A DNA stretch of 41,323 nt from Escherichia coli (GTDB lineage Bacteria; Pseudomonadota; Gammaproteobacteria; Enterobacterales; Enterobacteriaceae). The notes below the pieces were generated by a model, which was given only the letters and a program-made list of their open reading frames with translations, had not been told where the DNA came from and did not search any database. Below are positions 3,074 to 4,643 of this stretch, one piece after another. The stretch lies in assembly GCF_003334785.1 (NCBI RefSeq), contig NZ_QOWV01000025.1; one strand, 5' to 3'. The stretch's first letter is position 1, and every line of letters starts with the position of its first letter. A program made the position numbers and the translations under genes.

Positions 3074-3547
3074 TTAATGCAGCATACCTTCATTCACTTC
3101 AAAGAGTAATTCTTCCATTTGCTGGTACGCATTTTCGCAGCCCGGAATATTGAACAACACCATCAGGATCACCCATTTCAGATCATCCAGTTCGAACTCT
3201 GCGTTATCCAGCGCGAGCACTCGCTCTATCACCATTTCACGAGTTTCAAGGTTGAGCACCTGAATCTGCTCAAGGAAAAGCAGAAACCCACGGCAGCTGG
3301 CATCCAGTCGTTCACACTCTTCCGGTGTATAAATACGCATGGAGAGAGGATCCGAGGCCAGTTGCATCGGTTCTGCCAACCCTTCCTGATAATCAGCAAG
3401 TTTTTCCAGCCATAGCAGGGCATTGTAGATATCTTCTCGCTCAAAACCTGCGTCGGTAAGATCCTGTTCAAGTTTGTCTTGATCCACACGCAACTCAGCT
3501 TCTGTGTGAATATAGGTTTCAAACAAATACATTAGTACGTCGAACAT
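3074..3547 (-). CDS. smg: Smg protein (DUF494), 157 aa
   Basis: [30 protein letters not shown]...; conserved partner immediately downstream of dprA. Confidence 0.88.
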
Positions 3548-4643
3548 GGCATGCCCTCCTCAATCGGACATAGCCGCCGGGTACAGCTGCGATCCATCCT
3601 GCTAACTCCAGTTCGAGTAGTTGAGTAACTACCTCTGGCACAGGTTGGCCGGCACGTTCAGCGACGACGTCAACAGGTGTTACCTCATCTCCTACGTTAG
3701 CCAGGAGCTCAGGAAATGGCAATGCCACGTCTTGCTGATCTGGTGAATAAAATGAATTTTCAGGGGCGTCTGGCAACCAGTGCAATCCAAATTGCAAGTT
3801 TTCCAGAATTTCTTCCGGTTCCGTCACAAGAATCGCACCTTGTTTTATTAACCAGTGAGGCCCTTCGCTTCCCGGATTCCCTATTGGACCTGGCAAGGCA
3901 AAAACTTCTCGCCCCTGCTCAAGCGCACAACGTGCTGTCACCAGCGAACCACTACGCAAAGCCGCTTCCACCACCAGTACACCTTTACTTAGACCACTGA
4001 TAATGCGATTTCTTCGTGAGAAATTGTAAGCAAGGGGTGGAACATCGAGGGGAAATTCCGAGACGAGAGCGCCCCCCTGTTCAAGCAGACTGGCAGCCAG
4101 TCGGGCATGACGGCGGGGATGAATGGTATTAAGTCCATTCCCCAATACAGCAATGCTGACGCCATTTACCTGTAAGGCTGCTTTATGCGCTACACCATCG
4201 ATTCCACGCGCCAGTCCACTCGTAATTGTCACTCCACGCGTCGCCAGAGTTTCGCAAAATAATCGTCCCCATCGCTCGCCATACCATGAATGCGCCCGAC
4301 TCCCCACTACGGCAAGCTGAAATGAATGCAGCGCGTGCAGTTCTCCTTCAACAAACAGTGCGCCGGGGTAATCTGTCGTCGCCAGAAGTTGAGGAGGATA
4401 AAATTCGCTGTCCGCAGGAATTAAATGATGGTTGGGTTGCTCCAACCAACAAAGTGAGCTTTCGATACTCTTTCGTGGAAATGAAAGAAAGCGTTGTGCC
4501 TGCCGCAATGTAAGCCCTGTTTGCTGCAATACAACCGCATCAATATGCGACTGTTTTGCCACCCAGTGAGCGATACGGACCATATCATCGCCGTACAAGC
4601 TGCTGATACTCATTAAACGCAGCCAAATTTCTGTATCGACCAT
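3519..4643 (-). CDS. dprA: DNA-processing protein A DprA/Smf, 374 aa
   Basis: Rossmann-like DprA core ([18 protein letters not shown]...[15 protein letters not shown]); 3' end overlaps smg by 29 nt. Confidence 0.9.

Follow-up and report, generated by a model that had tools for sequence, protein, structure and literature searches.

The locus analyzed here lies in a stretch of 41,323 nucleotides (nt) from Escherichia coli (assembly GCF_003334785.1, contig NZ_QOWV01000025.1), which we refer to as the window and whose first letter is position 1 in all coordinates given below. It comprises six genes, dprA (also named smf), smg, yrdD, tsaC, aroE and yrdB, all located on the minus strand, and an ultra-conserved block that extends from the 3' end of dprA into the start of smg and that constitutes the main subject of this work (Table 1). 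The stretch belongs to the E. coli chromosome, and its bases 800-4800 were identical (100%) in the strains FORC 064, ML35 and UMNF18 and in other complete genomes. A search of 5,426 complete E. coli genomes recovered the dprA-smg-yrdD-tsaC-aroE-yrdB locus in every one of them, and RefSeq carries the annotation of the cluster. With regard to the K-12 locus (b4473 and b3284-b3280), genes, order, coordinates and overlaps were alike; compared to K-12 MG1655, one base differed across the six genes (T at 4019, in dprA, which leads to the P209S substitution described below), the other five genes being identical. Coordinates agreed across the open reading frame (ORF) listing, the sequence, the annotation given in RefSeq for K-12 and for strains with 100% identity, and a script, and in this way every detail of the gene order, the 29-nt dprA/smg overlap and the tight minus-strand packing described in a previous sequence-only reading of this DNA was confirmed.

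Conservation was analyzed as identity to E. coli in an alignment that covered the complete string in 47 Enterobacterales genomes, with up to 67 genomes in the alignment of the block. Both parts of the block, B1 and B2, showed 90% identity or more at each of the three codon positions in 47-67 genomes of this order, ranging from Escherichia to Yersinia, Serratia, Erwinia, Pantoea, Dickeya, Pectobacterium and Hafnia, and the 24 nt between them displayed normal codon-type variation. In windows of 12 codons, third-position identity reached values of 0.93-0.99 within the block, against per-gene means elsewhere of 0.40-0.51, a level at which these sites are saturated. When calculated over 59 codons, this parameter was 0.874 for the block compared with 0.395 ± 0.053 (maximum, 0.548) for 849 other windows of the six genes. 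At the other gene junctions, constraint was limited to the usual ~30-45 nt before the next start codon. Within E. coli itself, the block was at least 99% identical in 5,424 of the 5,426 genomes, while a 212-nt control from the middle of dprA reached this level in only 1,833 records.

The conservation just described could in principle arise in a block that has no function of its own, through constraint on the winged-helix domain of the DprA protein together with a mutation cold spot, gene conversion or recent horizontal spread. Such an explanation can draw on the conservation of the DprA C-terminal domain as protein across orders and on the dual coding of the last 29 nt with smg; however, it does not account for third positions that are nearly fixed in the block and saturated elsewhere, nor for the sharp edges of the block and the variable stretch inside it. 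The block was also found as a single copy per genome and was absent from genuine plasmids. A plasmid, phage or second-copy origin was rejected, since the plasmid-labelled matches corresponded to chromosome-sized or chromosome-derived records and no second copy was present. Regarding plasmid-labelled records in the E. coli genome collection, a 4-kb query (800-4800) yielded 344 matches, a mid-dprA query 23 and the conserved block one.

Another point against a block without function is that the block outlives the gene in which it is embedded. In the Pantoea sp. Nvir symbiont and in Candidatus Steffania adelgidicola, dprA was unrecognizable apart from the block, with stops in all frames, but a segment corresponding to positions 3731/3725 to 3505 was retained in front of smg with 86% (Pantoea) and 74% (Steffania) identity. 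This segment begins within 3-9 nt of the candidate -35 hexamer, and the Pantoea sp. Nvir copy is frameshifted inside the block. Because the block has outlived dprA in two symbionts, it appears to serve smg and the following genes rather than DprA, and we consider an absence of function very improbable.

We attach still less probability to dual coding, in which another reading frame or the complementary strand of the block would encode a second protein. An antisense ORF of 19 codons that starts with ATG does lie over B2, and an open stretch of 41 codons over B1; nevertheless, stops interrupt both alternative sense frames as well as all antisense frames, no evident ribosome-binding site could be read in front of the antisense ORF, and overlapping coding sequences would leave some positions free, whereas here all of them are fixed. 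A programmed +1 frameshift at the dprA stop codon (GUU UGA A, leading into the smg frame) was likewise rejected, given that it lacks a stimulatory Shine-Dalgarno sequence, depends on a poor slippery codon and would leave unexplained the conservation that extends over 180 nt upstream.

A single sigma70-like pair of hexamers, TTGCCA-17-TAACGT, was present in the block. Both hexamers were invariant in the 67 Enterobacterales genomes, the few variable columns being located in the spacer between them, and conservation starts at the -35 hexamer. At a distance of 175-180 nt ahead of the smg start codon, a pair of the form TTGCCA-17-TA[AG][CT]GT was also found in Aeromonas (60-63% GC), Vibrio, Photobacterium, Agarivorans, Aliagarivorans, Motilimonas and the scan locus L085. 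The loci with the pair at this fixed distance (L073, L075-L077, L079-L082 and L085) have GC contents of 45-63%. The pair was absent upstream of smg from both loci that carry a full-length topA gene (L083 and L084). In an alignment of 12 genera covering positions 3740-3548, only six of the 64 third positions were identical in at least 11 of the 12, namely 3720 and 3717 (-35 hexamer), 3699, 3696 and 3693 (-10 hexamer and the next codon) and 3558 (smg Shine-Dalgarno sequence). According to our own hypergeometric estimate, the probability that all four hexamer third positions are among these six by chance is ~2e-5.

Based on these results, we infer, as a reasonably likely reading of the sequence comparisons, that the string is not one simple operon and that the last ~200 nt of dprA harbor an embedded sigma70-type promoter and a leader for smg and the following genes. 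The promoter within dprA would consist of the -35 hexamer (3722..3717), a 17-nt spacer and the -10 hexamer (3699..3694), with transcription starting near 3687, and the resulting leader of ~140 nt would end in a strong Shine-Dalgarno sequence (GGAGG-N7-ATG) and the smg start. The housekeeping genes smg, tsaC and aroE would be expressed in this manner independently of dprA, whose own promoter region is weak and has been reported to depend on Sxy/CRP, and read-through from dprA may contribute too. An internal promoter would make biological sense, since in Enterobacterales the essential tsaC gene and the biosynthetic aroE gene lie behind a gene reported to be competence-regulated.

Several observations weigh against this proposal. 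The hexamer pair matches the consensus at only 8 of 12 positions, and it was not called by a strict promoter scanner. Furthermore, DprA conserves the residues L-P and N-V, and protein-level constraint accordingly accounts for some of the conservation seen in the hexamers. In Ca. Steffania, the -10 hexamer has a 1-nt deletion, and in the regions upstream of smg of two reduced genomes (L088 and L089; 12-16% GC) only the neighborhood of the Shine-Dalgarno sequence and the ATG was recognizable. Finally, the ~140 invariant nt of the leader exceed what a promoter alone needs.

Table 1. Features of the dprA-smg-yrdD-tsaC-aroE-yrdB locus, in window coordinates.
Feature	Position	Strand	Remarks
dprA (smf) coding sequence	3519..4643	-	ATG...TGA, 374 amino acids; SAM_SMF, DNA_processg_A and DprA_WH domains
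DprA codon 209	4017..4019	-	TCA (Ser) here, CCA (Pro) in K-12; first x of F-x-x-R-N
smg coding sequence	3074..3547	-	157 amino acids, DUF494
dprA/smg overlap	3519..3547	-	29 nt; smg frame is +1 relative to dprA
yrdD coding sequence	2503..3045	-	180 amino acids; 28-nt gap after smg; stand-alone homologue of the TopA C-terminal zinc ribbons
tsaC coding sequence	1926..2498	-	GTG start; threonylcarbamoyl-AMP synthase; 4-nt gap after yrdD
aroE coding sequence	1103..1921	-	Shikimate dehydrogenase; 4-nt gap after tsaC
yrdB coding sequence	849..1106	-	GTG start; DUF1488; 4-nt overlap (GTGA) with aroE
Ultra-conserved block	3519..3724	-	dprA 3' end into smg start
Block part B1	3635..3724	-	ATTGCCATTT...CCTGTGCCAG
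Variable stretch	3611..3634	-	24 nt; normal codon-type variation; apical part of predicted hairpin
Block part B2	3519..3610	-	TGGAGTTAGCAGG...GAGGAGGGCATGCC ATG...; contains smg ribosome-binding site
Candidate -35 hexamer	3717..3722	-	TTGCCA; putative
Candidate -10 hexamer	3694..3699	-	TAACGT; putative, 17 nt after the -35; predicted start near 3686-3688
smg Shine-Dalgarno sequence	3555..3559	-	GGAGG, 7 nt before ATG; third-position G3558 invariant across orders
def/dprA divergent spacer	4644..4772		Back-to-back conserved -35 hexamers
def -35 hexamer	4698-4703	+	CTGTCA, conserved in spacer
Perfect -35 hexamer	4704..4699	-	TTGACA, conserved in spacer; no good -10 at 16-18 nt
TGCGA half-site	4680..4684	+	Single; other half 1/5 matches
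Candidate yrdD promoter (weaker)	3081..3109	-	TTACTC-17-TATGCT; inside smg 3' end, moderately conserved; putative

The length of the invariant leader is at the same time an argument for an alternative that is compatible with an internal promoter, in which the block would be chiefly a structured regulatory RNA for smg-tsaC-aroE, whether as a leader that acts like a riboswitch or binds a protein, or as an RNase processing site. RNAalifold predicted a long irregular consensus hairpin in which B1 pairs with B2 and the smg Shine-Dalgarno sequence and AUG are occluded, with the only variable stretch of the block at its tip. The hairpin comprises 54 pairs, and 99.4% of the cells were paired; however, only three pairs had substitutions in both partners, and these same sequences had served to derive the structure. 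Substitutions in paired columns were mostly pair-preserving transitions (eight pairs kept and two broken in Hafnia, nine kept and four broken in Edwardsiella), in line with an RNA-level constraint, whereas 12 of the 21 changed pairs were broken in Ca. Steffania. No thermodynamic signal was observed either, since folding energies were not better than those of shuffled sequences (z of -0.6 to -1.8 in E. coli, and of -3.5 to +1.3 in other taxa). The consensus hairpin can thus be regarded as a plausible model that receives no clear support from energy or covariation.

Further observations bear on this regulatory-RNA alternative. Among the RNA 3' ends mapped by Term-seq (Adams 2021), the one at window position 3546 lies inside the predicted helix. 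On the other hand, a search of the block in Rfam 15 gave no match even at E<=10, nor did the block reach a gathering score in the scan of the whole window, and in Vibrio- and Aeromonas-type genomes the leader showed ordinary third-position variation. The near-total invariance found in Enterobacterales would be explained, under this alternative, by DprA coding constraint acting on top of the RNA constraint. The invariant stretch of ~140 nt between 3687 and the smg start might then be a new cis-regulatory RNA that binds a ligand or a protein, possibly Smg itself, and that sets the expression of smg, tsaC and aroE in Enterobacterales, and Smg would be a housekeeping factor unrelated to DNA uptake. 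We regard a block with chiefly this role as possible but rather doubtful, and the specific scenario of a new cis-regulatory RNA as equally tentative.

The sole match at gathering score in the window was the Alpha operon ribosome-binding-site leader (RF00140; 13522-13633, minus strand; 102.7 bits), located, as would be expected, upstream of rpsM. As a proposed cis-acting signal inside a co-directional string, conserved at the nucleotide level, the block would be similar to this leader, but it is located wholly within the coding sequence of the preceding gene, belongs to no Rfam family and has a structure that is only predicted.

The sequence-only reading had placed dprA at the head of one operon that includes all six genes. 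This proposal retains some basis, given that the genes are co-directional, that they are separated or overlapped by -29 to +28 nt and that no terminator-like sites were detected in any intergenic gap of the string; sites of this type were not enriched (7 found versus 4.1 ± 2.0 expected). If a single polycistronic transcript did originate in the region upstream of dprA, the block could be a device for translational coupling, in which the helix would hide the smg Shine-Dalgarno sequence and AUG until opened by ribosomes translating dprA. In favor of a single operon with such coupling, the segments ACACCUGUU and ACGUAGGAGAUGAGGU of B1 are paired with the smg Shine-Dalgarno/AUG region in the RNAalifold consensus, and the spacer between def and dprA contains a conserved perfect TTGACA hexamer on the minus strand as well as a site bound by RNA polymerase in systematic evolution of ligands by exponential enrichment (SELEX) experiments (Shimada 2014).

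Nevertheless, we consider a single coupled operon unlikely. Retention of the block in symbionts devoid of a dprA ORF indicates that it is independent of dprA translation, and reduced genomes have smg-tsaC-aroE without dprA. In the list of RegulonDB transcription units employed by Esquerre 2015, yrdD-tsaC-aroE-yrdB is a separate four-gene operon, and smf is listed alone by Shimada 2014. Moreover, synonymous conservation across orders falls on the promoter-like hexamers and not on the helix, whose folding energy, as stated above, does not exceed that of shuffles. Taken together, the RegulonDB and Shimada units, the detachment of tsaC and aroE in Vibrio-type genomes, the loss of dprA and yrdD from reduced genomes and the embedded promoter-like element argue that an operon headed by dprA is probably too simple a description of this string.

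With regard to the remaining transcription signals, dprA is divergent from def(-fmt), and the spacer that separates them has a length of 129 nt. The start of def at window position 4732 was confirmed by published SMRT-Cappable-seq data. No full CRP-S site (22 bp, TGCGA-N6-TCGCA) was found upstream of dprA within positions 4560-4800, and the region of the single half-site was moderately conserved. The weaker candidate promoter within the 3' end of smg would fit the RegulonDB unit yrdD-tsaC-aroE-yrdB. Minus-strand Term-seq 3' ends inside the string were located at 3546, 3339, 2881 and 2007 (in smg, yrdD and tsaC; Adams 2021), the first of them lying exactly 1 nt into smg. An additional orphan 3' end on the same strand, at position 67, lies far downstream of yrdB and is antisense to the region upstream of yrdA. 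The genes yrdB and yrdA are convergent and overlap by 25 nt (849-873).

Synteny was examined in 80 loci obtained from a genome scan with the Smg alignment A2 (alignment A1 was too divergent) and annotated by tblastn with the proteins of the window. Throughout Enterobacterales, the arrangement was fmt-def <> dprA-smg-yrdD-tsaC-aroE-yrdB >< yrdA, with the dprA/smg overlap included. Adjacency of dprA and smg on the same strand was observed in 78 of the 80 loci, the exceptions being two symbionts, and also in L083-L086. In Aeromonas, Vibrio, Photobacterium, Agarivorans and their relatives, dprA-smg-yrdD was unbroken and a LysM gene preceded dprA, while in Vibrio- and Aeromonas-type genomes tsaC and aroE were detached from yrdD and from each other. 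The intervening genes in L085 and L086 were purK-purE (on the other strand) and hemF. In two distant Smg-bearing contigs, L083 and L084, a full-length topA was the next gene after smg. The conserved core is therefore dprA-smg followed by topA or a zinc-ribbon tail, and only in Enterobacterales are tsaC-aroE-yrdB attached to it. Both the contiguity of dprA-smg-yrdD and the dprA-smg-topA order in distant loci indicate that the pairing of DprA with a topoisomerase-type zinc-ribbon protein, which the earlier reading had pointed out, is real and evolutionarily conserved.

Four reduced, symbiont-type genomes kept smg-tsaC-aroE and had lost dprA and yrdD (L049, 8790-9030; L070, 8790-9030; L088, 3001-4910; L089, 3001-4958), which argues that Smg is a housekeeping protein whose function is independent of DprA and YrdD.

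A closely related arrangement is known from Neisseria meningitidis, where dprA also lies directly before smg, which is followed by a topoisomerase I-type gene (Hovland 2017, PMC5817196). In that organism, co-transcription of dprA-smg-topA was established by reverse transcription PCR; a promoter inside dprA was predicted as well, and topA is in addition transcribed on its own (PMC5817196). Unlike N. meningitidis, E. coli has as its third gene only a zinc-ribbon tail (YrdD, 180 amino acids) and carries tsaC-aroE-yrdB appended to it, and Enterobacterales are characterized both by the dprA/smg overlap of 29 nt and by the ultra-conserved block.

The Haemophilus influenzae dprABC genes, said to have been described by Karudapuram and Barcak in 1997, reportedly form a competence-inducible operon that depends on TfoX (Sxy), and we take dprB and dprC to be smg and yrdD. 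This would be a dprA-headed, competence-regulated unit of three genes in another gamma-proteobacterium, whereas the E. coli window has a single TGCGA half-site upstream of dprA.

As for the products of these genes, DprA has a complete three-domain architecture, composed of the SAM_SMF domain (residues 1-65; E=2.5e-20), the Rossmann-fold core domain DNA_processg_A (PF02481; residues 68-274; E=1.3e-69) and the DprA_WH domain (residues 311-357; E=2.8e-11), and it matched the solved DprA structures 3MAJ (E=2.6e-43) and 3UQZ (E=5.7e-42). Judged from these domain and structure matches, it is a full-length and probably RecA-loading, single-stranded DNA-binding protein of a latent competence gene set. 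Orthologues of competence genes, dprA (smf) among them, have been conserved throughout the gamma-proteobacteria (Cameron and Redfield 2006), E. coli dprA has been reported in the Sxy/CRP regulon, and a role of DprA in transformation has been found in every examined species except E. coli (Hovland 2017, PMC5817196).

The description of dprA as intact holds for its full-length ORF of 374 codons, and it has to be qualified with respect to the P209S difference from K-12. The motifs for binding of single-stranded DNA have been defined as G-S/T/A-R and F/L/Y-x-x-R-N/D (Wang 2014, PMC3950713). The first is present as G-S-R (within ...AVVGSRAHS...) and the second as F208-S209-R210-R211-N212, which formally satisfies the motif despite the serine. 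Pro209 was invariant among 118 representatives of enterobacterial DprA clusters, and proline is also found at this position in the Rhodopseudomonas palustris and Streptococcus pneumoniae structures. The Ser209 allele was present in 105 of the 5,426 complete E. coli genomes, and P209S is a natural variant that could be used for testing functional selection on E. coli DprA.

YrdD contains three clear and one weak Zn_ribbon_Top1 repeats (Pfam) and aligned with E. coli topoisomerase I (TopA; PDB 4RUL) only over residues 658-750 (E=1.5e-10). It thus shares three to four of these repeats with the zinc ribbons of TopA, but it has neither the Toprim nor the cleavage domain; in the Pfam search, Zn_ribbon_Top1 repeats were the only domains detected and no Toprim or catalytic domain was found. 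YrdD is consequently not a topoisomerase; on the basis of these matches, it is a stand-alone copy of the zinc-ribbon, single-stranded DNA-binding tail of TopA, placed where distant proteobacteria carry a full-length topA. In line with this, Zn-dependent binding of single-stranded DNA by YrdD has been reported, according to a citation of Cheng et al. 2014 in PMC4678816. The yrdD transcript has also been reported as supercoiling-responsive. The Pfam and TopA matches uphold the DNA-handling character that had been proposed for DprA and its zinc-ribbon neighbor.

Smg is an uncharacterized and strongly conserved protein, with an AlphaFold model that is all-alpha (predicted local distance difference test score of 85). 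No convincing fold match was found for this model, DUF494 has no solved structure, and the literature searched on the function of DUF494 or Smg yielded nothing relevant. Within Enterobacteriaceae, identity to the E. coli protein was 85-96% for Smg versus 57-70% for DprA. Three database proteins (P0020, P0086 and P0154) fuse parts of DprA with DUF494, and these fusions are probably sequencing or frameshift artefacts.

The gene string itself and the linkage between DprA and a topoisomerase are already known, as the cluster is annotated in RefSeq and universal in E. coli, the neighborhood "tsaC, dprA, smg, yrdD, aroE, yrdB" was named in a 2025 paper (PMC12506659), and the dprA-smg-topA linkage has been published. 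In contrast, searches of Rfam and of the literature, including work on synonymous constraint in smf, gave no description of an element at the dprA/smg junction, and the embedded ultra-conserved element therefore appears to be undescribed in the sources searched. It amounts to ~200 nt that are near-identical from Escherichia to Yersinia, Erwinia and Dickeya, within a fast-evolving and poorly expressed gene, and that persist in symbionts from which the gene has been lost. If an internal promoter and leader are indeed present, they would explain how essential tsaC and aroE are expressed behind a competence-regulated gene. In that case, deletions of dprA in enterobacteria, or tags at its 3' end, would be polar on essential functions, and the element would provide an entry point to the function of Smg (DUF494), a protein that minimal genomes retain.

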